A stretch of 64,000 nucleotides of DNA from a bacterium (GTDB lineage Bacteria; Patescibacteriota; UBA1384; 2-12-FULL-50-11): positions 139,932-203,931 of the forward strand of contig JAJTYJ010000001.1 in the NCBI GenBank assembly GCA_021463485.1, in the 5' to 3' direction. Each line of letters begins with the position of its first letter. The stretch's first letter is position 1. Positions 6,715-19,275 of this stretch are shown one piece after another. Position numbers and translations under genes: made by a program. The notes below the pieces were generated by a model that worked only from the letters and a program-made list of their open reading frames with translations, was not told the origin of the DNA and ran no database searches.

Positions 6715-8592
6715 ATGCGAAAAAAACTACTGATCATCGCCGGGTTTTTAGTGGTAGTAGGTATCGCCGCTTTTGTATATTTTAATCGCAGCGAAGAGAG
6801 CGGAGAGTTTGAGGCGGCGTCTGTAACAACAGATGTTAAAGCGTATCCAGCTGACTCATTCGTCGAGTCGTTTGGTCTCAACACGCACTTTAGTTACGCC
6901 GACTACAACACTAATAGTTACTTCACCGATGTTTACACTTCTGTTGTTAAGCCAAAACTAAAAGAATTAGGCGTGCGTTATATCCGAGACAGCCATGGCA
7001 CGATGGGAACAGGCAATAACTCATTTAAGCGCTACGCCGAGCGGCTATCAGAACTGAGCAACCCGACAGACGGCAGCGCACCGATTGCGGTTAACTTAAT
7101 AGTTTCTAACTCAACCACATCAACCGCTTTCCCTGGAAATAAATGTTTCCAGGTTAAAAATAAACTACTACTGCAAGGTGGGGTTATCCCGAGCGGCTGT
7201 GGAGAAGAAGTCGGACAAACCGTAACGGCTGCAGTTAAGATCGCCGCGCTTGAAGGACCAAACGAGCCCGATCACTGTTTCTCTTGGAGACCGGAGTGCC
7301 AGATCTCCGGCACTTGGTACGATAAAATTACCAACAGAAATCCAACCTGGATCGAAGATACGATCAGCGCGATGCGATCGCTGTACGACGGGCTAAATGC
7401 CGATCCGTTAACTCAGTCTATTCCGATCCTCTCACCGTCGTACGTTCACCTCGAAGAATTTAGTACCGCAAAAAAGACTAATCCTGATGGTACTACAACA
7501 GACGTTTCGGCTGAGTTAGCGAAACTTGATGTGATTAAACCATTAGTCGACACGGGTAGCTTTCACCCGTACTGCACCGGTAAAGCTCAATCTTCTTGTT
7601 TGGGGCCAAAAGTTCAAGCCTGGCAAGCGTACTTGCCCGGTAAAAAACTAACTGCGACTGAATTAGGTTGGCCTGCCGCTACGCCGGTTCAAACCGGATT
7701 AGTCTCAGAAATCCAACAAGCTAAATATCTTCCGAGATCGCTCTTCACTCACTTTACGACTTCAGTAGACGCTCAAGGTCTTTCAGCGATCGATAAAAGT
7801 TATAACTACGAACTGCTCGACGAAGTTAGCCAATCCGACACTAAACAAAAAAATTTCGGGATCGTACGCGCCAACGGCACACCGAAACCGGCATTTACTG
7901 CCGTAAAGAACATCATCTCTCTACTAAAGGACCCGGGCTCCAGCTTTACAACTGGAAACTTAAACTACTCGCTAGCCAACAGTAGCACAACGCTCCGACA
8001 CGTCCTGTTTCAAAAGCGAGACAAGAGCTTTTGGCTAGTCGCCTATAACGACGTCGCAAGCAGTACCGATACCGACTCGATTGTTCCGGCAACGCTACAG
8101 CTCGGCACAATCTCAGATGTTACCGTCTACTCGCAAGATAGCGTCTCCCCAGTTGCGAGTTACACCAAAACCCAATCAGTAGCGCTTTCCATCCCGGACA
8201 AAATTGTGCTTATAAAAATCGTTCCGTCGGTAGTTGAGGAACCGCCTCCAAGTATTTCGATGCACGTCGGCGATATCGATTCGAGTACTTCTGCAGTTCA
8301 ACGAAACGGGCGATGGTCCGGGTCGGTTACGGTGACTGCCCACGATCAAAATGAAGTAGCGCTTTCTGGTGTGGTCGTACGTGGAACTTGGACCGGCGGG
8401 TATTCTGGGACAACAAGTTGTACAACAATCAACGGTAAATGCGTTATGTCGTTCCCAACAATAAAGAAAGCCTCTGTTACATTAACTGTAACTTCGCTAA
8501 GTAAGTCTGGTTACGTCTACCAGTCTGTCAGTAACCACGATCCAGACGGGTCGAGTAACGGCACGGTTATTACCGTTCGAAAGCCAAACTAA
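6715..8592 (+). CDS. Large secreted or membrane-anchored hypothetical protein (625 aa)
   Basis: N-terminal TM/signal anchor; long Ser/Thr-rich extracellular sequence; followed by a strong terminator. Confidence 0.65.
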   Translation: MRKKLLIIAGFLVVVGIAAFVYFNRSEESGEFEAASVTTDVKAYPADSFVESFGLNTHFSYADYNTNSYFTDVYTSVVKPKLKELGVRYIRDSHGTMGTGNNSFKRYAERLSELSNPTDGSAPIAVNLIVSNSTTSTAFPGNKCFQVKNKLLLQGGVIPSGCGEEVGQTVTAAVKIAALEGPNEPDHCFSWRPECQISGTWYDKITNRNPTWIEDTISAMRSLYDGLNADPLTQSIPILSPSYVHLEEFSTAKKTNPDGTTTDVSAELAKLDVIKPLVDTGSFHPYCTGKAQSSCLGPKVQAWQAYLPGKKLTATELGWPAATPVQTGLVSEIQQAKYLPRSLFTHFTTSVDAQGLSAIDKSYNYELLDEVSQSDTKQKNFGIVRANGTPKPAFTAVKNIISLLKDPGSSFTTGNLNYSLANSSTTLRHVLFQKRDKSFWLVAYNDVASSTDTDSIVPATLQLGTISDVTVYSQDSVSPVASYTKTQSVALSIPDKIVLIKIVPSVVEEPPPSISMHVGDIDSSTSAVQRNGRWSGSVTVTAHDQNEVALSGVVVRGTWTGGYSGTTSCTTINGKCVMSFPTIKKASVTLTVTSLSKSGYVYQSVSNHDPDGSSNGTVITVRKPN

Positions 8593-8593
8593 A

Positions 8594-8619
8594 AAGAGGG
8601 GTAAAACCCCTCTTTTTAG
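8594..8619. terminator. Rho-independent terminator (AAGAGGGG-taaaa-CCCCTCTT followed by TTTTT)
   Basis: Perfect 8-bp GC-rich stem and T-run immediately after the stop of 6715..8592. Confidence 0.6.
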
Positions 8620-8643
8620 TTTTCGCAATTGCGATAACGCGAA

Positions 8644-8883: not shown

Positions 8884-9000
8884 ACCACCTCACCTCCTTC
8901 CTCATTTTTGTTAAAACTACTCTTGTCTTTACTTTTACCGTTATTTACTCCGAGCGCAATACCCACTTGAATCGTTCTCGAATGAGCGTACGCTACAAGT

Positions 9001-9480
9001 ATGTTAAAAACACTCTACGTTATCGCGATCGGTTTATTATTTGCCGCTGTTGTTGGGTTAGGAATCGAAGCGTTCTACCCCCAACCAAAGTACCCTGAAT
9101 ACCCGAGAGAGCTAAATTACCCTGGAACTAACGGGTACACCGAAGAACAAAAAGCAGTACAAGATAAATTCGACGAAGAGAACAAAACCTTCATGAAGCG
9201 TATGGACACCTATAACCGAGATGTCTCACTAATACTTATCGGATTTGCGCTAGTAATTCTTGCTGTCTCGATTATCTGGGTCGGTAGTATTGAAGTGATC
9301 GGCGACGGGTTAACACTTGGTGGGGTCTTCACTCTGTTATACGGTCTGGGGCGAGCGTTGGCTGGCGGCGATGAAAAAGTCCGTTTTCTGGCTGTTGCTT
9401 TTGGATTAGTAGTGCTGGTCTTCCTTGCTTACTGGAAATATATTCGGCCGAACCAACAAAAAACGACTCCGCAGTCCTAA
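9001..9480 (+). CDS. Membrane protein (159 aa), hypothetical
   Basis: Several predicted TM helices; no family recognised. Confidence 0.5.
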   Translation: MLKTLYVIAIGLLFAAVVGLGIEAFYPQPKYPEYPRELNYPGTNGYTEEQKAVQDKFDEENKTFMKRMDTYNRDVSLILIGFALVILAVSIIWVGSIEVIGDGLTLGGVFTLLYGLGRALAGGDEKVRFLAVAFGLVVLVFLAYWKYIRPNQQKTTPQS

Positions 9481-9512
9481 GACGTTGGAGTCGTGACGGG
9501 CGGCGATCGCCC

Positions 9513-9815
9513 TCAGGCGTATGCCGGGATACGGGCAGTCGCTCTGGAACCTTGGAGAAGGCGGGTGTGTCGGCGAGCGACACGAAGATGGTGATGGCGC
9601 TCGATCCAAGCGCGAATCGCATCGTAGCCCTCGTAAACCGAGTTTCCGTCGACCTCAAGTCGAACCGAAACGATCGGTCTCATGTTGCGACCATCAGGCT
9701 CAGGCTGGTCATCAACGTACTCGACATTCGCGCCGTCAATGAGCTTGAGCTCCGCTTCCAATTTTGTCGCCGTAGCGACGCACGTTCCAGAATAGATTCT
9801 AAGGTTCATAAGCAT
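9513..9815 (-). CDS. Small glutaredoxin-like (DUF836-like) protein with a degenerate active site, in a GC-rich mini-island
   Basis: SD GAGGGA 7 nt upstream; pattern L-R-I-Y-S-G-T-C ... E-Y-V-D ... P-I-V ... G-Y-D-A-I-R-A-W resembles glutaredoxin-like DUF836 but has a single Cys; ~60% GC. Confidence 0.4.
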   Translation of the reverse strand: MLMNLRIYSGTCVATATKLEAELKLIDGANVEYVDDQPEPDGRNMRPIVSVRLEVDGNSVYEGYDAIRAWIERHHHLRVARRHTRLLQGSRATARIPAYA

Positions 9816-9911
9816 TCCCTCGCTTCCCCGCTGGTTGCGGGTTCTAATATTCTCCTGCTAATTTATTCCATTGACAAGTACTTTTAGCTAATTTTCTGGC
9901 ATACTAGCGAA

Positions 9912-10976
9912 ATGAACGACGTCTATTTTCTTGCCGGTGGAGTGGTGCTTGGCGCCGGTATAACCTATTTTTTACTCAAAAACAGACAAAATGACTTTAG
10001 CTCGGTAAGCGAACAGCTCCTCAACTTAGCGAAAGAAAAGCTCGGCGCCGAGAAGGAAGTAATTAAGACGGATCTCGAGGGCAAAAAAGACGCGATAAAA
10101 ACGCTCGTTGACGAGATTCGCCTTCAACTCAAAGAAACGGACGAAAAACTAAGACGAAGCGAACAAGATAGAATTTCTAGTTTCTCAGCGCTACAAGAAG
10201 AGCTTAAGGCACACAAACAACTAGCCAGCGAACTGCGAGGCTCGACCGATGGATTAAAGAACGTTCTTTCAAACAATCAAACCCGCGGTCAATTCGGCGA
10301 ACGGATCGCTGAAGACCTGTTAAAAATGGCGGGCTTTGTAATCAACCAGGATTACTTTGTTCAGCATCAATCTGGCGAAGGTCGCCCGGACTTTACAGTG
10401 GTGCTGCCAGATAAAACTAAGATAAATATCGACGTAAAGTTCCCGTATCAGAATCTTCAAAAATCAGCGGAGGCGAAAGACCCAGAGGAGAAGAAGCGGC
10501 ATTTCGCTCAATTTCAGCGTGATGTTCGCAAGAAAATTGGCGACATCGCCAATCGTAACTATATAAACCCGGACGACAACACCGTCGATTTTGCCGTAGC
10601 CTTTATTCCTAACGAAATGATCTTTAGTTACATCTACGAACGTTCGAACGACATTTGGGAAGAAGCGATGGCTAAAAAAGTGGTATTAGCTGGTCCATAC
10701 TCGTTTGTGGCGCTCCTAAGACTAATCAAGCAAGCCCATTCTAACTTTCAGATGCAGTCAAATATTCATAATGTTATCTCGCTGGTTCAAAAATTTCGCC
10801 AAGAGTACGAGAAGTTCTCGACCGAGCTAGATGCGCTTGGAACTCGTCTCGAGTCTGCCAGTAAGCAGTATCAAGTTGTTAGTAGTACCCGCAGCCGTCA
10901 ACTCGGGCGTGTGATGGATCAAATCGAGAACCAGCACGTACTAGACAAAACCGAACAGAACTTATTAGACAATTAG
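9912..10976 (+). CDS. rmuC: DNA recombination protein RmuC
   Basis: N-terminal TM, coiled coil, and conserved RmuC core (GQFGERIAEDLL ... PDFTVVLP ... IDVKFP). Confidence 0.85.
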   Translation: MNDVYFLAGGVVLGAGITYFLLKNRQNDFSSVSEQLLNLAKEKLGAEKEVIKTDLEGKKDAIKTLVDEIRLQLKETDEKLRRSEQDRISSFSALQEELKAHKQLASELRGSTDGLKNVLSNNQTRGQFGERIAEDLLKMAGFVINQDYFVQHQSGEGRPDFTVVLPDKTKINIDVKFPYQNLQKSAEAKDPEEKKRHFAQFQRDVRKKIGDIANRNYINPDDNTVDFAVAFIPNEMIFSYIYERSNDIWEEAMAKKVVLAGPYSFVALLRLIKQAHSNFQMQSNIHNVISLVQKFRQEYEKFSTELDALGTRLESASKQYQVVSSTRSRQLGRVMDQIENQHVLDKTEQNLLDN

Positions 10977-11026
10977 TTTCTTGAAAGGATCTCCTAATAA
11001 TGGGGGCTTTCAGGTAGAATCTTGGT

Positions 11027-12511
11027 ATGAGTCAGAACAAGCCTGAGGCTGAGATCCGATTAGACAAGCTAAACGAACTTAAAAAGCTCGGCATCAATCC
11101 GTATCCGAGCAGAACGCCAAGCTTTCACGTAATCGGCGAGGTTCGAAAAAAGAAAGAAGGCGAGAAGATAGCAACGGTGGGTCGGATTACAGCGATTCGA
11201 GAGCACGGCAAGTCGACCTTTTTTGACATCGAAGATCCAGAAGAAAAGCTGCAAGTTTATTTTAAGCTCGACGAAGTCGGCGAGAAGTCGTATGAGCTCT
11301 TGAAACTTCTGGACGTTGGCGATTACGTATGGATCTCGGGGGAGATGTTTATTACCAAAGCTGGCGAGCTTTCGTTAAAAGCTAAAGAATTTCAGCTACT
11401 GTCAAAATCATTACTACCAATTCCGGAGGGCTGGCACGGCCTGACGGACGTCGAAACGCGTTACCGATCGCGCTCTTTGGATTTTAAGATTAACAAATCT
11501 ACCCGAGAAATCATTAAAACCCGCAGTAACATTATTAGCGGTATTCGCGACTTTCTCGATCGCCACGGATTCATCGAAATAACCACGCCGGTACTACAGC
11601 CAATCCCAGGCGGTGCCACCGCTAGGCCGTTTATTACCCACCACAACGCGCTTGACGCCGATTTTTATCTCCGAGTTTCCGACGAGCTGTATTTGAAACG
11701 CTTAGTCGTGGGTGGCTTCGAGCGCGTCTACGAGATCGGCCCGGATTTCCGCAACGAAGGATTGTCTCACATGCATAATCCAGAGTTCACGATGTGTGAG
11801 TTCTACTGGGCGTACCAAACGGCCGAAGGGTTGCGCGGTGTTACTCAAAAACTAGTTCAAGAATTAGTCGAAAAAACAAACGGTACGTTAACTATTGAGT
11901 ACCAAGGTCACAAACTCGACTTTAGCGGTGATTTCGTAGTTAAAAAATATCGCGACCTTATTGAAGAAGAGACCGGGATTAATATCGACACCGAGAACGA
12001 TTTTAAAAAGCTTAACGCCGCTGTTAAAGCAAAAAAAATTGAATTCAAGGGCCAAGATATTAAAGTGTGGAGCGAGTTAGTTGATGAGCTGTTCAAAAAA
12101 ACCTGCCGACCCAAGATTGTTCAACCTACATTCGTTATCGATTACCCGATCGCGACCGCGCCGCTAGCCAAACGTTACGAAGATCGGCCAGAGACTGCAC
12201 AAAAGTTCCAGCTAATTGTGGCGGGTGGGTTTGAATTAGTAAATGCGTACTCAGAGCTAAACGATCCGCTCGATCAAGAAGCGAGATTCCGTGAACAGAT
12301 GGAGATGCGCGAAGAAGGTTGGGACGAAGCGCAGATGCTCGACGAAAACTACATCGAGGCTTTAAAATTCGGTATGCCGCCGACTGCCGGTTGGGGAATG
12401 GGAATCGATCGGATGACGATGATTTTGACGAACCAATATTCTATAAAGGAAGTTATACCCTTTCCTACGCTAAAACCTATCAAGAATATTGGTGAGGAGA
12501 AAACGAAGTAA
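11027..12511 (+). CDS. lysS: Lysine--tRNA ligase, class II
   Basis: OB-fold anticodon-binding N-terminus plus class II motifs (FRNEG, GGxGxGIDR) and a typical C-terminus ...SIKEVIPFP. Confidence 0.95.
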   Translation: MSQNKPEAEIRLDKLNELKKLGINPYPSRTPSFHVIGEVRKKKEGEKIATVGRITAIREHGKSTFFDIEDPEEKLQVYFKLDEVGEKSYELLKLLDVGDYVWISGEMFITKAGELSLKAKEFQLLSKSLLPIPEGWHGLTDVETRYRSRSLDFKINKSTREIIKTRSNIISGIRDFLDRHGFIEITTPVLQPIPGGATARPFITHHNALDADFYLRVSDELYLKRLVVGGFERVYEIGPDFRNEGLSHMHNPEFTMCEFYWAYQTAEGLRGVTQKLVQELVEKTNGTLTIEYQGHKLDFSGDFVVKKYRDLIEEETGINIDTENDFKKLNAAVKAKKIEFKGQDIKVWSELVDELFKKTCRPKIVQPTFVIDYPIATAPLAKRYEDRPETAQKFQLIVAGGFELVNAYSELNDPLDQEARFREQMEMREEGWDEAQMLDENYIEALKFGMPPTAGWGMGIDRMTMILTNQYSIKEVIPFPTLKPIKNIGEEKTK

Positions 12512-12594
12512 TGCTGAGTATTCTCACTAACCAGCACTCAATTAAAGAAGTAATTCCGTTCCCGACGCTTCGCCCAATAAACGAAGGAAAATGA
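12511..12594 (+). repeat. Diverged duplicate of the lysS 3' end as a 27-codon ORF (MLSILTNQHSIKEVIPFPTLRPINEGK); its TGA overlaps the pgeF ATG
   Basis: Compared with lysS 12419..12511 (MILTNQYSIKEVIPFPTLKPIKN...): ~80% aa identity but ~70% nt identity, with differences concentrated at synonymous sites. Confidence 0.6.
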
Positions 12595-13391
12595 GTACTA
12601 TGGAAGCGTATCGTTTCCAAAATCTCTCGAAATTCCCCGAATTGGTTCACGGCGTCGCCACCGCTGCCTTTGGTAATATGTCGTTTCTGTACGGGCGAGA
12701 CGACGAGGTGATCGCTAACCGATATAAGTTCTTCACCTCGCTTGACGTTAACCCAGAGAAAGTTGCTGTCGCCCAGCTCTTTCACGAAGCTGATGTTCTC
12801 GAAGTAACAGAGAAAGATCGCGGTAAGGGCGTCGAAGAGACAAGATCACTCCTGTCGGCCGATATTCTAGTAACCAATAAACCCGATGTTTTTCTGTTCT
12901 TTGTAGTCGCCGACTGTCTGGCGCTTTTCTTCTACGACCCTGTTACTGGTTGCGTAGCGCTTGCTCACGCCGGGTGGAAAGGCGTTCACCGAGAAGTTCC
13001 TCGAGTAGCGATTCAAGCTCTTCGAGAACGTTACGGCGCCAAACCTGAAAATATCCTTGTAGGTATGTCTCCGAGCATTAAGAAGGAGTCGGCTAAATTC
13101 AAAGAGATAAACCAGACAAAGTTCCCTCAGTGGCAGCCGTATATATATAGGTGCAATAAATGCACCTTCTCTGACAAAAATATTGTCAGAGATAACGAGG
13201 TTGAACACTACCATGTTGACGTTTCTCGATTTGCTTACGATCAACTACTTAGCACTGGGATTTACGAGGAACATATCGAAGAATCGCCGATCGACACTCG
13301 TACTAGCTCAGACTTTTTCTCACATCGGCGCAGCGACGAAGAGAATATTCCCGAAGCCCGCTTTGGCTGTGTAATTGGCATTAAGAAATAG
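12591..13391 (+). CDS. pgeF: Peptidoglycan editing factor PgeF / YfiH (laccase-domain, DUF152) family protein
   Basis: Conserved motifs VVADCLALFFYDP and ALAHAGWKG plus the C-terminal His region. Confidence 0.8.
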   Translation: MSTMEAYRFQNLSKFPELVHGVATAAFGNMSFLYGRDDEVIANRYKFFTSLDVNPEKVAVAQLFHEADVLEVTEKDRGKGVEETRSLLSADILVTNKPDVFLFFVVADCLALFFYDPVTGCVALAHAGWKGVHREVPRVAIQALRERYGAKPENILVGMSPSIKKESAKFKEINQTKFPQWQPYIYRCNKCTFSDKNIVRDNEVEHYHVDVSRFAYDQLLSTGIYEEHIEESPIDTRTSSDFFSHRRSDEENIPEARFGCVIGIKK

Positions 13392-13466
13392 TTTTACCCT
13401 ACCCCTTTCTAAAAAATTACTCTGTTAACCAATTAGAAATTATTCCAAAAATTCCGTCTAAACTTA

Positions 13467-13495
13467 TTGACATTTTGCAATGTTTCGGGTATAGT
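13467..13495 (+). promoter_or_regulatory. Consensus sigma70 promoter TTGACA-N17-TATAGT upstream of the GC-rich two-gene module
   Basis: Perfect -35, 17-nt spacer and 5/6 -10, ~100 nt upstream of ATG 13594. Confidence 0.5.
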
Positions 13496-13593
13496 TAGCG
13501 CCGCATCGTGAGAGTTCAGAAAACAACCACGACGCACATAAACATAACGACATTGCTACGACGGCCGGCGACGGCCCAAGGAGACACGCACCA

Positions 13594-14190
13594 ATGAAGA
13601 CTCTGAAAATGCTTCTCTTCGTCATTGTGCTCGTCGTCGGCTCAGCTTCTGCGTTCGCGCAGAGCGTCGACGAACTCGGCGGAGCGAACCCGCCGGTCAC
13701 GAGCACCGACCCAGTCGGCCAAGACCCCACGAACTTGCCGAGTCATCAACCTCCGCCCTGGGAAACTCGGGAGGGAGTTGAGGTAGCGGCTCGGAATTAC
13801 TTCGAGGCAAAAAACCAGTACAACGAGTGTCGGCATCGCGGCGACAAGCCGGGCATGGCTCGCGCCGCGAAGCGGATGCGCACTCACTCGAACGCCCTGG
13901 CTGCCTTTAAAAAGCAGCAAGCGGCGCGCGACAAGGCGCAAGACGCTAGGCTCGATGCTCACAGCAACCTCGTGTGGAAGCACGAGTCGCAGTTGAACGG
14001 CAAAGGCGGTCTTAACGACCGACAAGGCAAAACCGAAAAGCGCGTAAAAACGCTTGAGGAAGAGATGGACGCCGTGACGCCGGCAATCGCCGGCATCAAC
14101 GGAAAGTTCGACGGACTCACTTGGTGGGTTCTGATTCTCACTCTCATCGTTCTGATCGGCTTTGGCCGACGCTACTGGATCCACCGCTAA
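13594..14190 (+). CDS. Secreted protein with a C-terminal TM anchor (198 aa) in a GC-rich island
   Basis: SD AAGGAG; signal peptide MKTLKMLLFVIVLVVGSASAFA; C-terminal TM WWVLILTLIVLIGF; ~60% GC. Confidence 0.55.
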   Translation: MKTLKMLLFVIVLVVGSASAFAQSVDELGGANPPVTSTDPVGQDPTNLPSHQPPPWETREGVEVAARNYFEAKNQYNECRHRGDKPGMARAAKRMRTHSNALAAFKKQQAARDKAQDARLDAHSNLVWKHESQLNGKGGLNDRQGKTEKRVKTLEEEMDAVTPAIAGINGKFDGLTWWVLILTLIVLIGFGRRYWIHR

Positions 14191-14207
14191 GGAGTCGGGA
14201 AGAAACC

Positions 14208-14855
14208 ATGAACATCAGTGACCTCATGCTGACCACGCCCCTCGGGGCGATCCTCATCATCGTCTTGCTCGTCCTGGCCGCCATCGCGGCTTGGGGGGCA
14301 TACGCAAACCGTCCTACCGCCAGGCTGGAGACGGCACCGCCGACTCCGCCTCAGCGACCGACCCCAGCTCCGGAGCCTCCGAAGAAGGAGGAGCCGAAGC
14401 CAATCGTCGAGCAACCCCTCCCCAAAAAGGAGTCGGAACCTTGCACTTGCAAGGAAGAGGAACCGTGCGCCAAGGAGCGCGAGGAGATTAGGCGCCTAGA
14501 AGGCGAGCTGGAGACGGCGAGAGCCGACAGCAACACGAAGGAGGGTGAGAACAACGAACTCACCAAACGTCTCGCCAACGCCAACCGGCGACTCGAGGAG
14601 TCGCAGACGAATGCGAAGCTGGCCAAGCCGCAGAAGGTGACGGCCAGTAACATCCTTCCGTTGCTCGATGATCTCGGCAACATCAACTTCAGCGCTGCAA
14701 AGCAGCTTCGGGCGGAGGCCAACAAGCCTCAGCCTGAGTACGCACGGATCGAGAAGCGACTCGGAGTTTTCGCGGACTACTGCGAGCAGCGCGGCTTCGA
14801 ACGCCCCGACCCCGGCACTCTACTGCAGCTTCTGCAGGAAGCGCTCAAGCAGTAG
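14208..14855 (+). CDS. N-terminally membrane-anchored Pro-rich / coiled-coil protein (215 aa) in a GC-rich island
   Basis: SD AAGGAG 9 nt upstream; TM helix, then a PTPPQRPTPAPEPP linker and a coiled-coil region. Confidence 0.55.
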   Translation: MNISDLMLTTPLGAILIIVLLVLAAIAAWGAYANRPTARLETAPPTPPQRPTPAPEPPKKEEPKPIVEQPLPKKESEPCTCKEEEPCAKEREEIRRLEGELETARADSNTKEGENNELTKRLANANRRLEESQTNAKLAKPQKVTASNILPLLDDLGNINFSAAKQLRAEANKPQPEYARIEKRLGVFADYCEQRGFERPDPGTLLQLLQEALKQ

Positions 14856-14930
14856 CGCAACAATGAATCCACAACGGACCGTTCTCAATGGCACCAGCCA
14901 ACGAGACGGTCCTCTTTTTTTATCTAATTT

Positions 14931-17780
14931 TTATTTGATTAATTTAATTAGCTCCCGGAGCGAGATAGTATGATCGTACTGTTGGTCACCTTCATCACGC
15001 ATTAAAGTAATATTAAAGTCTATGGTCTCCGGTTCTCCAACGCCTTCTGCCATTAGTATTGAAAGCGGAGTCTCCGATAGTTTTTGCGAGCGAGGGATAT
15101 TTAATGCCTCTTTAATCTCTGCTGCTTGTTCGCTGTTATCCGCTGCTTCAGAAAAATTAATTGACTGGCCCTCGGCGAAATCGTCTGGGGTTTTACCCGC
15201 CTCTGTAATTAAATCGTACAACTCCTTGTCGGGCTCAGACTCTGACTCCGGTTCTGGCTCGGGAGCTTGGGTTAGCTGCTCTACTTGTTTTTCAGGTTGT
15301 TGAGTATGATTTGGATTTTCTTCTTCGGTTGGGGACCGATCTTGTTCTGTAACTTCCTCCGATTGAGATGATTCTAGATTTCGCCCAACTACCATTGATT
15401 CGATCGTTGAATACACAAATGGTTGAGCAATTTTGCCAACCTTAGTAACGATCGTTTGACGCTTTGAATCGACTCGATCTACGGTGATTTTTACCAAACC
15501 ATTTTCTTTCTCACCGCTTCGCAGAACAGTAGTGCCGATTCGGCTTGAATCACCCTCAGGAACTCTCAAGAAAAGTACGTCACCTTGGGCTATATCTTCA
15601 AACTTTACGCTCGCTTCGTTCTCCTCAACGCTCTTATTTGCTTCTACCCTTACAGTATTAATATTAGGCTGGCCGTTAACAGTGATGGGCACCGGTTCTT
15701 CCTTTTGAAGCTGTTTCTTGGCGTTAGCATCTTCAAACCGGTCAACAATCTCGTTAAGCAGAGCTGTCACTTCTTTGCTTGATGGGTTTGTTATAACTTT
15801 CCAACCATCTTTCTCCCGTGAATCAGTTCTACCAAGAACAATCTTAGGCGGGTTCGGCAACGGCCGCCCTTCGCGATCGTACTCTGGCTCCGGATATTCT
15901 AACTTAATAGATTGGGAGAAATTGTCTTTGTTTTTCAAGAAGATCGACGTGACCGAACGACCGTCTGGTGCTGGAGTCTTGCTCATTGTGATCCCAAATG
16001 TGTTTAACGTATCTTCGTCTAATTCAGAAGCTCCAAACGAATACAGCTTCTCAACATCTTCAACTATCGACGCAGCGTCACTACTTTCTGGTTCAACTTT
16101 CTTATCGCCTTTTTCGTTATAAGCCTCCAGGAAAGCCTTGCTAATATCCTCTTCAACACCTTCAAGGATTTCTTGATGACCAGTAGTGTCTTTTTCGGCC
16201 CACCGAACCGGTAAGTTCTTGCCATTTTCACCAGCTGGTAATTCTTTTTGGTCACGGGCGTTAAGAGCTGCTTGCTCGCCATCCGTTTTATCAACGCCCG
16301 ATTCTTCTGGTTTTTTGCGCATCGGTAACGCTTTAGCTTCGCCGCCCGGTAATGCTAGCCGATTATCATCAGATTTTGATTCAGTTGCCTTGGGTTCTCC
16401 GCCACTCTTTTTAACAGATGAAAAGAACTCAGCCAAGAACTGCAGCTGTGCCCCAGCTATTGGCACAGCTTCTTTCCAGAACGATCCGGCTAACGCAGCA
16501 GCGCGCTCAGCAAGTTCGGGATTATTTTGCACTATCAAGTTGCGGAAGATACTATCGTTGAGACCTGATAATACGTGAACTTCGCTACCATTATTTAACA
16601 CGGCTGTTGTAACTTCGGCAGCCTTATTGACGCCAAACTCAGCCGCCGCAGTTCCACCGTTGTAGTTAAAGACAAAACCTCCTGTTTTTTCGAGTTGTTG
16701 GGCAAACCCTGGATCGGCGCTAGCGATATCACTCGGGTTAATTTTTTCGACAAAATGTTGTATTCCATCTTTATCAAAATCTGCCCATACCCCACGAACT
16801 TTATCAATATCGGCATTAAGCAAGCTCTCCTGAATTGCATATCCTCCCAGCCCACCTAATATTGAACCACCTGCTGCAATAATGTCAGCTACCTTCTCTC
16901 GTTTTTTTTCAAGACGCATCTTGTCATAGCCAAGTCTTTGCGTTTCAGCTAAACCACTGAGTTCCTTCTCCACTTTATTTTCCGCATAAAGTGCCTGGTA
17001 GCTTTCATAATGAGTGAGGTCAATAAAGTATTGATGGAGTTCTGCAAGTTGTTTGTCGATTTCCACCCTTCGTTCTTCGTCGGCCTCCTCGCGCTCCATG
17101 ACTAGATCCACAGCTTGGTCTTGAAGCCTGGCTGCCTCGGCAAATACCTTAGAGCGAGATTCGATAACTTTGGTTCTACCCTCACGTTCATCCTTCTTAA
17201 AATGTCGGTAAAGCTCGAAGGCCCCTCGCGCCGCAGCACCGCCAGCCAACGCCGCTAGAAAGACAGGCGAGCCGACTGTCCCACCGAGTATTGCGGCAAT
17301 ACCTGCACCGATACCACCAGCAACACCGGTTTTTACACCAATTTTGCCGAGACGAAGTGCGCCATCACGACCTAATAATCGAAATGCTTTTTTAAGTTCT
17401 TTGGCTTGCTCTTCAGGCTTTGCATCAGCAACTCGTTCAGAGATTTTTAAGTCAGAGTATTCACCTGCAAATACAGCTTTGGTTTGCTTAATAAATCGGC
17501 TAAGTACATTACCCTCACTAATTTTATAACGCTCCGCGATCTCTTCGATACTTCGCTGTCGGGCCTGCTCAACGTAATTAATAGCGAATTTCTCGCGTTC
17601 CTGTTTATTATCGACAACCGTATCGGCGTTCTCGGGTGAAATCAGTGGAGCAGGCTCTTCCGGGGTTGGTTCGCTTTCTGGTTTTTCGGCTACTTCCTCA
17701 GTGGTATCTTTCCACTCGTCGGGGCTTAATTCATAAACTTCCGGATCTTGGCCAGCATCAGCGCCCCTCAGCTCCGACAT
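14931..17780 (-). CDS. Large acidic hypothetical protein (949 aa) with Gly/Ala-rich hydrophobic segments
   Basis: Long open frame translationally coupled to the upstream 111-aa gene; glycine-zipper-like segments GVAGGIGAGIAAILGG and IIAAGGSILGGLGG; no NTP-binding motif or known domain recognised. Confidence 0.7.
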   Translation of the reverse strand: MSELRGADAGQDPEVYELSPDEWKDTTEEVAEKPESEPTPEEPAPLISPENADTVVDNKQEREKFAINYVEQARQRSIEEIAERYKISEGNVLSRFIKQTKAVFAGEYSDLKISERVADAKPEEQAKELKKAFRLLGRDGALRLGKIGVKTGVAGGIGAGIAAILGGTVGSPVFLAALAGGAAARGAFELYRHFKKDEREGRTKVIESRSKVFAEAARLQDQAVDLVMEREEADEERRVEIDKQLAELHQYFIDLTHYESYQALYAENKVEKELSGLAETQRLGYDKMRLEKKREKVADIIAAGGSILGGLGGYAIQESLLNADIDKVRGVWADFDKDGIQHFVEKINPSDIASADPGFAQQLEKTGGFVFNYNGGTAAAEFGVNKAAEVTTAVLNNGSEVHVLSGLNDSIFRNLIVQNNPELAERAAALAGSFWKEAVPIAGAQLQFLAEFFSSVKKSGGEPKATESKSDDNRLALPGGEAKALPMRKKPEESGVDKTDGEQAALNARDQKELPAGENGKNLPVRWAEKDTTGHQEILEGVEEDISKAFLEAYNEKGDKKVEPESSDAASIVEDVEKLYSFGASELDEDTLNTFGITMSKTPAPDGRSVTSIFLKNKDNFSQSIKLEYPEPEYDREGRPLPNPPKIVLGRTDSREKDGWKVITNPSSKEVTALLNEIVDRFEDANAKKQLQKEEPVPITVNGQPNINTVRVEANKSVEENEASVKFEDIAQGDVLFLRVPEGDSSRIGTTVLRSGEKENGLVKITVDRVDSKRQTIVTKVGKIAQPFVYSTIESMVVGRNLESSQSEEVTEQDRSPTEEENPNHTQQPEKQVEQLTQAPEPEPESESEPDKELYDLITEAGKTPDDFAEGQSINFSEAADNSEQAAEIKEALNIPRSQKLSETPLSILMAEGVGEPETIDFNITLMRDEGDQQYDHTISLRELIKLIK

Positions 17781-17781
17781 T

Positions 17782-18117
17782 TTAGTTACTCTGGTGCTGA
17801 CCGCGCAGCGTCTCAGAGATAGAAGCCATCTCTACCTTATACGCAAGTGATTCTGTCGTGGCAATCTGATCAATATCAATACCGTTTTCTTCAAAGAACG
17901 CCTGAACAGCCTTGGCATCACCAGCATTAATCAGTTCTTTTAATTTATCTAGACCTTGTTCATCGAGCTGGTCGGCGACTCGCAGCATTACTCGATTCAT
18001 CACCGTCTCATACGCTTTCTGAAAAACGTCTGCCTTTTCTTCCTCAGACAGTCCCTCAAGTTCAGAAACCTCAAACAAGCTCTTCTGTAATACGTCTTCT
18101 AGCCCAATATTACTCAT
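17782..18117 (-). CDS. Small acidic hypothetical protein (111 aa)
   Basis: 36 nt downstream of rpoD with no intervening terminator; its stop lies 1 nt from the ATG of the 949-aa gene. Confidence 0.6.
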   Translation of the reverse strand: MSNIGLEDVLQKSLFEVSELEGLSEEEKADVFQKAYETVMNRVMLRVADQLDEQGLDKLKELINAGDAKAVQAFFEENGIDIDQIATTESLAYKVEMASISETLRGQHQSN

Positions 18118-18153
18118 ACTACGAGCGTAGCAAATTCGAATAACATTACAACG

Positions 18154-19275
18154 CTAGTTTAAGTAGTCTTTGAGCTTTGAGGCTTCTTCGTGTTTTTTGA
18201 GTTTTTGTAATGCTTTAGCTTCTATCTGTCGGATACGCTCGCGAGTAACACCGAACTCTTTTCCGACTTCTTCCAACGTATGGGTACGAGCTGAGCCTTC
18301 TTCAGCATCTAATCCGAAACGCATTCGTAAGATTTTTTGTTCGCGTGGCGTTAAAATCGAGAGCGACTCCTCGACGTGACCCTTCATCAACTGATAAATC
18401 GCTTGCTCTTCCGGTGAGATCGTATTTTTATCTTCAATAAACTCGCCTAGGCTCGAGTCGCCTTCGTCGCCAACAGGGGATTCAAGCGAAACTGTTTCTT
18501 GTGAGATTTTCATAATGTGTTCGAGCTTATCGAGCTCGACGCCGAGTTTTTTGGCTAACTCTTCGTGGGTTGGCTCGCGACCGAGCTCCTGTTGAAGTTC
18601 GCGTTGCGTACGCATATATCGGTTGATGGTCTCGACCATATGAACTGGGATACGAATAGTGCGAGCTTGGTCGGCGATCGCTCGGGTAATTGCTTGGCGG
18701 ATCCACCACGTGGCGTACGTTGAGAACTTAAAGCCTTTTTTGTAATCGAACTTCTCTACCGCCCGATGCAAACCAAGATTTCCTTCTTGGATTAAATCCA
18801 AAAGCGACAAACCGCGACCGATGTATTTTTTGGCAATCGAGACGACTAATCGAAGGTTAGCTTCGGCTAGTTTTCGTTTGGCCGCCTTATCACCACGCTC
18901 AATCCGTTTGGCTAATCGAACCTCTTCGTCACCAGTTAAGAGCGGGTACTGACCGATCTCACGAAGATACATACGGACCGAGTCTTCGCTTAGTCCGGTA
19001 ATATCGTCGTCTTTGACTACTTTTTTCTTGCCGGTTTCTATTTCGGGAATGTCGAGTAAGGGTTTTGGTTCGCGTAACTCAACCCCGATCGTATCTAGGT
19101 AGCGCATAAACTCATCAACTACCTCTAAATCATTTTCCGGCTCGGTGAAGCTCTGCAAGATTTCTTTATATGTTACGAATCCGTGCGCCCGGCCTTTGCG
19201 AATGAGATACATCAGCTCCTCAGGAAAATTAAGACCGACGTCTTGTTTTATTTTTTTCGGCACTGCTTTTGTCAT
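18154..19275 (-). CDS. rpoD: RNA polymerase sigma factor RpoD (sigma-70 family, group 1)
   Basis: Regions 1.2-4 are conserved ([39 protein letters not shown]); its ATG overlaps the dnaG stop. Confidence 0.95.

Follow-up and report, generated by a model that had tools for sequence, protein, structure and literature searches.

The interval between lysS, the gene for a class II lysyl-tRNA synthetase (LysRS), and pgeF in a patescibacterial genome is occupied by a head-to-tail array of lysS 3'-terminal units. We analyzed this interval in a 64,000-nucleotide (nt) stretch of DNA, hereinafter the window, and in its relatives, where the number of such units ranges from one to three; of these, the first alone contributes to LysRS, and the later ones are out of frame. 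In the window, the second of two units forms an open reading frame (ORF) of 27 codons, referred to below as the stub. With a probability that we put at about 0.75, the stub would be a displaced former 3' end of lysS (24 codons of it) in an array that has grown by the recombining in of lysS ends from other lineages. Read in this way, the locus would be a physical record of serial allele replacement of an essential gene in bacteria of the candidate phyla radiation (CPR), and the leftover gene end may be a small coding ORF.

Structure of the lysS-pgeF interval

The product of lysS combines the Pfam domains tRNA-synt_2 (E value, 7e-85) and the OB anticodon-binding tRNA_anti-codon (3e-14), which places it in the class II family, and it has more than 100 homologues, the nearest of which all come from Patescibacteria (CPR). 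Right after the lysS stop codon (TAA 12509-12511), and in the -1 frame with respect to lysS, there is a second copy of the lysS tail, as had been stated in the original prediction, which was made from the letters of the window. A codon alignment of positions 12422-12481 with positions 12520-12579 has the same residue at 18 of the 20 sites, with the consensus ILTNQ[Y/H]SIKEVIPFPTL[K/R]PI. Fifteen of the 20 codons differ by synonymous changes only, two by nonsynonymous ones (Y/H and K/R), and three are unchanged; every synonymous codon pair listed in the original prediction was recovered in this alignment. The two segments are 67% identical at the nucleotide level and differ at 16 of the 20 third positions, which means that their synonymous sites are saturated. 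The similarity is nevertheless not a matter of chance, as a degenerate two-tail pattern matched once in the window and not at all in 100 shuffled sequences.

Three explanations of the second copy could be discarded. Recent replication slippage is rejected, in agreement with the original prediction, by the low identity of the adjacent copies and by the number of third positions at which they differ. A diversity-generating retroelement is rejected because the changes, which fall at third codon positions, affect all four bases and are not adenine specific. An assembly artefact is rejected because both forms of the locus recur identically in independent runs: the window and three Logan runs share an identical double-tail form, which is also present in a JGI contig, L091, that is 98.6% identical to the window, and the triple-tail form described below is base-identical in the contigs of four separate runs.

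Both the functional tail and the stub fit the motif ILT[ND]Q[HY]SIKEVIPFPTL[RK]P, which is almost invariant in the more than 100 homologues of the clade. Because of this near invariance, any two lysS genes of the clade would show a synonymous-only pattern, so that the pattern alone is not diagnostic of a particular origin and relatives are needed. Among the 68 nearest motif-matching homologues, the C terminus reads FPTLRP in 60 and FPTLKP in 7; the former (R-type) is thus the majority form, and the stub indeed fits the canonical LysRS C terminus better than the K-type tail of the intact gene does, as had been claimed. The same two differences, H/Y and R/K, distinguish the stub peptides MLSILTNQHSIK and EVIPFPTLRPINEGK from the LysRS tail peptides. 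The first three codons of the stub align about equally well with the motif-3 codons of lysS (ATGACGATG) and with the spacer that precedes pgeF (ATGAGTACT).

The extent of the copy had been given as about 27 codons. This is the length of the ORF, but the duplicated unit extends beyond the lysS stop codon, includes 8 post-stop bases, and recurs with a period of 98 nt (12422 to 12520; Table 1). Units of the K-type, namely A in the relative L085, B in the window, and B' in the relative L101, are each exactly 98 nt long and align gaplessly over their full length, as far as the start of the next unit. Point mutation has shifted their stop codons: L101 uses a terminal TGA, the window uses a TAA two codons earlier with the same TGA still in frame behind it, and the stop of unit A is a TGA located four codons before the terminal one. 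The gap between the stop codon and the next unit amounts to 8 nt in the window and 14 nt in L085. The unit boundary is the same throughout, with the stubs of the window, of L101, and both stubs of L085 starting at the Ile466 codon, just after the motif-3 codons. Such fixed, gapless 98-nt units indicate that the boundary has been inherited and not remade at each event, which accounts for all stubs beginning at one codon. The 38-nt motif-3 stretch in front of this boundary shows a single mismatch between the window and L085, even though the gene bodies are only 80% identical, and is therefore nearly constant between diverged lysS alleles. In the sequence immediately 5' of each stub, only 5 to 8 of about 12 to 14 nt match either the motif-3 codons or the end of the neighboring unit (8/14; P ~0.01). 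In all genomes that have both types, the K-type unit is the functional one and the R-type unit adjoins pgeF.

Table 1. Positions of lysS, its 3'-terminal units, and neighboring genes in the window
Feature	Position	Strand	Remarks
rmuC	9912-10976		Upstream of lysS
lysS, class II lysyl-tRNA synthetase	11027..12511	+	494 aa; from ORF list, Pfam, and homologues
Motif-3 codons (…AGWGMGIDRMTM)	12384..12421	+	38 nt, directly 5' of the unit boundary
Unit B, functional K-type 3'-terminal unit (ILTNQYSIKEVIPFPTLKPIKNIGEEKTK, then stop)	12422..12519	+	98 nt including 8 post-stop bases (TGCTGAGT)
Stub ORF, 27 codons (MLSILTNQHSIKEVIPFPTLRPINEGK, then stop)	12511..12594	+	ATG shares one base with the lysS TAA (TAATG)
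Unit C, putative displaced R-type 3'-terminal unit	12520..12599	+	Stop TGA 12592-12594 plus 5-nt spacer GTACT before the pgeF ATG
pgeF/yfiH, Cu-oxidase_4 family	12600..13391	+	Pfam PF02578, 8.5e-49

The assignment of the pgeF start affects one more detail of the original prediction, the overlap of the stub TGA with the pgeF ATG. The overlap hinges on the start codon chosen: it holds for an alternative in-frame ATG at 12591, but the ATG at 12600, 5 nt past the stub stop, is the one that aligns with the conserved start of the relatives (MEA/MEV... in L088, L100, and L101).

Probable origin of the additional units

The gene order rmuC-(small ORFs)-lysS-pgeF is kept across the clade, and the number of tail units varies within it, with one unit in L098, L100, and L088, two in the window, L091, and L101, and three in L085. 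L091 shares the lysS-stub-pgeF layout of the window, and its stub differs from that of the window by a synonymous ACT>ACG change alone. L101 is far more distant (~76% nucleotide identity overall, 77% in the lysS body, and 75% in pgeF); it has a B-type functional tail (…TLKPIKNVGEEKTNHR, then stop) that is followed by an R-type stub (IMTDQHSIKEVIPFPTLRPLSEQK, then stop) with the same junction as in the window (…TGAGT/AT…, where the slash marks the junction), and its pgeF begins 4 nt after the stub. The synteny comparison that had been suggested to check the prediction found lysS ending directly before pgeF in all three single-unit genomes. One of these, L098, is ~80% identical to the window and syntenic with it over window positions 8890 to 17252, and its functional lysS ends in an R-type tail (ILTNQHSIKEVIPFPTLRPIQEGK, i.e., …TLRPIQEGK, then stop) that abuts pgeF without any stub.

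Two of these relatives carry the argument for displacement. Over 57 core nt, the functional tail of L098 differs from the stub of the window at 10 positions and at none of the 19 encoded residues, whereas the functional tail of the window itself differs from its stub at 19 of the 57 positions. A tail of the stub type is thus used functionally, in front of pgeF, by a related genome, which agrees with the original prediction in tracing the stub to another lysS allele, itself under protein constraint, and in seeing it as a scar that gene replacement left. L085 provides a second instance. This genome (L085/L094) is represented in four independent runs, with no base difference between their contigs at the locus, and in most of its sequence it is close to the window, with 96% identity in rmuC and 93 to 96% in rpoD/dnaG and other syntenic blocks, except for one block at 89%. 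Its lysS body, in contrast, is only 80.4% identical to that of the window in an ungapped alignment over 1395 nt, while units B and C are again 93 to 98% identical, which makes the locus a mosaic. The order in L085 is its own tail A (…TLKPIQKTGSEK, then stop), 14 nt, stub B, stub C, and then pgeF; stub B is 1 nt away from the functional tail of the window, and stub C is 4 nt away from the stub of the window. Thus, L085 carries the functional tail of the window as a stub behind a diverged lysS body.

The placement of A before B in L085 dates after its split from the window lineage, i.e., within ~5% divergence. Units A and B differ at 14 of the 57 core positions, and A is accompanied by a gene body that is 80% identical. 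Such divergence in a genome that is otherwise ~5% diverged means that the L085 event cannot be an in situ duplication. To judge from the sequence, a lineage ~20% away was the source of an allelic replacement that left the previous lysS end behind. By analogy with L085, stub C of the window would be the previous, R-type end of its lysS, and L098 would show the undisplaced state. According to the original prediction, finding the same stub in related genomes would speak against a replacement scar. Stubs are indeed present in L091, L085, and L101, and this does away with a recent scar that is private to the window lineage; the displacement origin is unaffected by it.

In the mechanism that we propose, DNA from a related lineage would recombine in, and the incoming lysS end would be joined in front of the resident end with no in-register replacement. 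The joining could proceed by one-sided homologous plus illegitimate recombination, as proposed for type VI secretion system (T6SS) effector arrays (PMC5361080), or by out-of-register exchange between arrays that already hold two units. The second route is favored by the 98-nt colinearity of A, B, and B' and by the resemblance of the post-stop end of A to the end of B. In either case, the last unit would have to be retained, since the native lysS-stop/pgeF-start junction is part of it.

Several features of the array could also be explained by an ancient in situ tandem duplication of the last ~98 nt of lysS, with purifying selection on both copies and no foreign allele at the B/C junction. The units are arranged head to tail with a fixed period and can be aligned beyond the stop codon, the stub appears to be constrained, and the junction is common to the window and the distant L101, hence old. 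We consider this explanation unlikely. The distance between B and C exceeds that between C and the L098 tail, so that the B/C split would have to predate the split of the window from L098, and L098 must then have lost unit B; moreover, the only event that can be dated, the placement of A before B in L085, is incompatible with it. A very improbable origin is an attachment (att)-site scar of the icd/icdC-e14 type, left by an integrative element that would have brought the replacement lysS end and whose body was later deleted. A replacement 3' end with mostly synonymous changes next to the displaced original is the situation outlined for icd/icdC in the summary given in PMC13626634. However, the gap between the stop codon and the next unit is just 8 nt (in the window) or 14 nt (in L085) at two independent junctions, the flanking ORFs that were scanned contain no integrase or other mobile-element domain, and no run of identity between B and C exceeds 5 nt, which leaves no crossover core. 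A scan of IMG/VR with the tail motif gave a single antisense match inside a phage tape-measure gene, which we attribute to chance, and no evidence of a phage or element attP.

The displacement origin, which we prefer over these two, has to contend with three points of its own. Donor genomes were not found, hence no junction can be traced to its source. The polarity of the event in L085 is one that we infer; alternatively, lysS-A could have received an imported B+C patch behind it. Finally, the distance matrices of both lysS and pgeF place the single-unit genomes L098 and L088 within the multi-unit ones, so that unit losses or extra transfers have to be assumed.

Searches beyond these genomes added few cases. 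An exhaustive phmmer search of 1.84 billion representatives with the stub-frame peptide retrieved only stub B of L085 and one unrelated case. In a LysRS scan of genome contigs, none of 80 loci had a second tail, the best match being 50% identical and generic peptide patterns dominating the output. The degenerate two-tail DNA pattern had no matches in JGI metagenome contigs, a weak null, as the JGI contig L091, which does match the pattern, was missed as well. A pgeF-based scan of metagenome contigs yielded two relatives only, at 22 to 24% identity.

Probable translation and constraint of the stub

The stub frame is open, and its start codon is kept, in each of the four stub-bearing genomes (the window, L091, L085, and L101). 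In all of them the start overlaps or abuts the preceding stop, as TAATG in the window, L091, and L085, as ATGA in stub B of L085, and as GTGA in L101, which is the layout of a coupled mini-ORF. Translation of the stub could be coupled to lysS termination via TAATG, and the ribosomes would then be delivered to pgeF 5 nt past the stub stop, a proposal with moderate support.

Moderate support also exists for purifying selection on the sequence of the stub peptide. The stubs of the window and L085 show 4 synonymous and 0 nonsynonymous differences. The proportion of differing synonymous sites (pS), 0.22, is in line with the genome baseline of ~0.16 and with the value of 0.14 for rmuC, and under neutrality 7 to 13 nonsynonymous differences would be expected, with the probability of finding none between 1e-3 and 2e-6. 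With L091 added, the stub orthologues show 5 substitutions, every one of them synonymous (P ~1e-3). Between the window and L101, the stubs differ at 15 of 24 third positions and at 7 of 48 first and second positions, a profile that agrees with that of the functional lysS body (0.50 versus 0.09). Despite 16 differences over the 57 core nt, the L101 stub keeps 17 of the 19 core residues of the window stub, and the junction is common to both. An antisense ORF at 12480-12785 was considered as the source of this codon-position pattern and rejected, since stop codons interrupt it in every relative and Pfam gave no match for it.

Taken together, the stub is, or until recently was, probably translated and constrained. 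In the original prediction, a retained functional peptide was offered as an alternative to a replacement scar; the two are compatible, and the run of synonymous substitutions gives the former some support. Whatever the fate of the peptide, the 3' end of the stub certainly matters, as it forms the native lysS-stop/pgeF-start junction. We advance only tentatively the stronger proposal that the displaced end has become a selectively maintained gene for a 27-residue microprotein, translated through coupling between lysS and pgeF, and that the junction is a standing array of isofunctional units whose copy number would change by unequal exchange. If true, this would be a new coding gene born of the remnant of an allelic replacement and kept over the ~25% nucleotide divergence that separates the window from L101.

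At the other extreme, the stub could be a neutral fossil, untranslated, unconstrained, and too young to have decayed, with its synonymous-only changes due to chance or conversion. Only 5 substitutions have accumulated within the window lineage, the sole change in stub B of L085 is nonsynonymous (GGT>GAT), Shine-Dalgarno (SD) use is rare in this genome, and motif 3 is missing from the stub peptide, for which no separate function is obvious. The absence of nonsynonymous changes where several are expected, the conservation of core residues in L101, and the retention of the ORF and its start codon in all stub-bearing genomes argue against a fossil, which we regard as rather doubtful. The least credible of all explanations is a programmed frameshift into the stub frame that would give LysRS an alternative C terminus. 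The stub does follow the lysS stop directly and in the -1 frame, but a stub-frame TGA at 12493-12495 leaves just positions 12496-12508 for the shift, there is no slippery heptamer among them, and the product would hold the C-terminal strand twice.

The view that the stub is translated and constrained is tempered by the following considerations. For the window lineage, the test of constraint draws on 5 substitutions, the comparison with L101 counts only if the two stubs are orthologous, and the stub would look selected if functional R-type alleles of relatives had converted it repeatedly. In addition, the AGGAG located 11 nt upstream of the stub ATG is weak evidence of initiation, SD motifs being rare in the genome.

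Genomic neighborhood

Neither a promoter nor a terminator was found between lysS and pgeF or within the tails, an Rfam search of the region returned nothing credible, and the z-score of the local RNA fold, -1.5, is not significant. In a candidate hairpin at 12491-12532, the last part of tail B (GGTGAGGAGAA) would be base-paired with the beginning of the stub (TTCTCACTAACC), and the loop would hold the lysS stop and the stub ATG. Over the window as a whole, an SD-like motif is found 3 to 14 nt from the start codon in just 9 of 37 long ORFs, and initiation appears to be largely SD independent. At 8586-8622, there is a 37-nt inverted repeat, 92% identical, that was seen as a reverse-strand self-match in the comparison of L001 with the window.

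The PgeF protein encoded in the window has 263 or 266 aa, versus 247 to 250 aa in L085, L088, L100, and L101; it carries a 15-residue insertion (CNKCTFSDKNIVRDN, at ~13150-13195) that is absent from the PgeF of these four. In L098, the conserved pgeF ATG reads ATA (ATAGAAGCGTATCG, at ~3925), and the PgeF called there starts 26 codons later and has 222 aa; the ATA could reflect loss of the start codon or a noncanonical start. In P0055, a 742-aa protein (67% identity) from a 2615-nt Logan contig, LysRS and PgeF form a single product (…FPTLRPIKWIMSEVTKF…), which represents a natural fusion or else a read-through call. P0164, a partial LysRS of 247 aa from an unrelated organism, contains a near-perfect in-frame tandem repeat of ~72 residues that extends from the motif-3 GIDR through the tail and a C-terminal extension; its left edge is similar to that of the array described here, but the repeat is recent and in frame.

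The stretch from the 3' end of rmuC to rpoD (10945-18154 in the window versus 8313-17509 in L094) is variable between genomes that are otherwise 93 to 96% identical. Within it, lysS and pgeF are ~80% identical, and all of the sequence downstream of pgeF is nonhomologous: the window has a minus-strand ORF of 949 aa (14931-17780) with no Pfam match, and the counterpart region of L094 has an ORF of 1134 aa. Between rmuC and lysS, L085 has a 1.65-kb insertion (1313-2963) with three minus-strand ORFs of 89, 83, and 167 aa and no Pfam match; the same gap holds no small ORF in the window and one unrelated small ORF each in L092 and L093.

Implications and comparison with known systems

Replacement of essential housekeeping genes, be it horizontal or allelic, is usually inferred from phylogenetic conflict alone. 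At this locus, the order of replacement would be legible in the DNA, with the R-type end followed by B and then by A, because each lysS event leaves the prior end in place. It would follow that genome-reduced, uncultivated Patescibacteria swap alleles of an essential synthetase across lineages ~20% apart while the rest of the genome is ~5% apart. The stub would also be an example of a gene remnant that is kept, and possibly becomes a translated mini-ORF, because it holds the context in which translation of the next gene is initiated. For those who annotate genomes, the locus is a warning that short ORFs beside conserved genes can be displaced ends and not noise, as well as a reminder that the start of pgeF is ambiguous here.

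The closest parallel to this arrangement is the C-terminal displacement of rhs (and cdiA) genes, where the intact gene is followed downstream by a stack of orphan tips (Jackson et al. 2009, PMC2935791). In those systems, a conserved body acquires a new 3' end, the old end is shunted directly downstream, arrays grow in this way, and the tips are conserved (PMC2935791). The lysS-pgeF interval likewise contains stacked former 3' ends whose number varies among relatives (1, 2, or 3). The rhs tips, however, are nonhomologous toxin domains that come with immunity genes, so that displacement alters function, whereas the lysS units are homologous, share the same peptide core (17 to 19 of 19 residues), have no gene between them, and belong to an essential housekeeping gene. 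The orphan tips of rhs also carry a clear fragment of the core; here, at most ~12 nt of weak similarity, possibly a fragment of this kind, precedes the unit, and the scale is ~98 nt instead of kilobases. The lysS locus thus behaves as a displacement array does, without being a locus of polymorphic toxins.

T6SS effector genes of Vibrio cholerae have undergone sequential displacement via homology-facilitated illegitimate recombination (Kirchberger et al. 2017, PMC5361080). The likeness lies in the mechanism proposed there, with a homology anchor on one side, an illegitimate join on the other, retention of the resident downstream part, and serial growth of the array (PMC5361080). In Vibrio, whole immunity genes are retained, for which there is an obvious selective reason; here, it is a gene end of 24 codons. 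The icd/icdC pair of Escherichia coli, as far as it is described in the summary of Hill et al. 1989 in PMC13626634, consists of a housekeeping gene with a mainly synonymous replacement 3' end and a displaced C-terminal fragment nearby, the icdC pseudogene, which flanks prophage e14 (and phage 21). According to the same summary, the two E. coli copies are separated by a 15-kb prophage with its integrase, and site-specific excision rejoins them (PMC13626634). Unlike icd/icdC, the lysS copies are contiguous, with no element between the units, no shared crossover core, and no integrase in the neighboring ORFs scanned.

In a limited literature search, no array of this kind was found to have been described for an aminoacyl-tRNA synthetase gene. 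Genes for these enzymes are often exchanged horizontally, and in situ xenologous or allelic displacements of them normally leave no physical trace. The L085 locus resembles these cases in that a lysS body diverged by 20% sits in a genome diverged by 5%, with the rmuC-lysS-pgeF synteny kept. It differs from the usual replacement of a synthetase gene in that each event here would leave the prior gene end behind as a datable marker.

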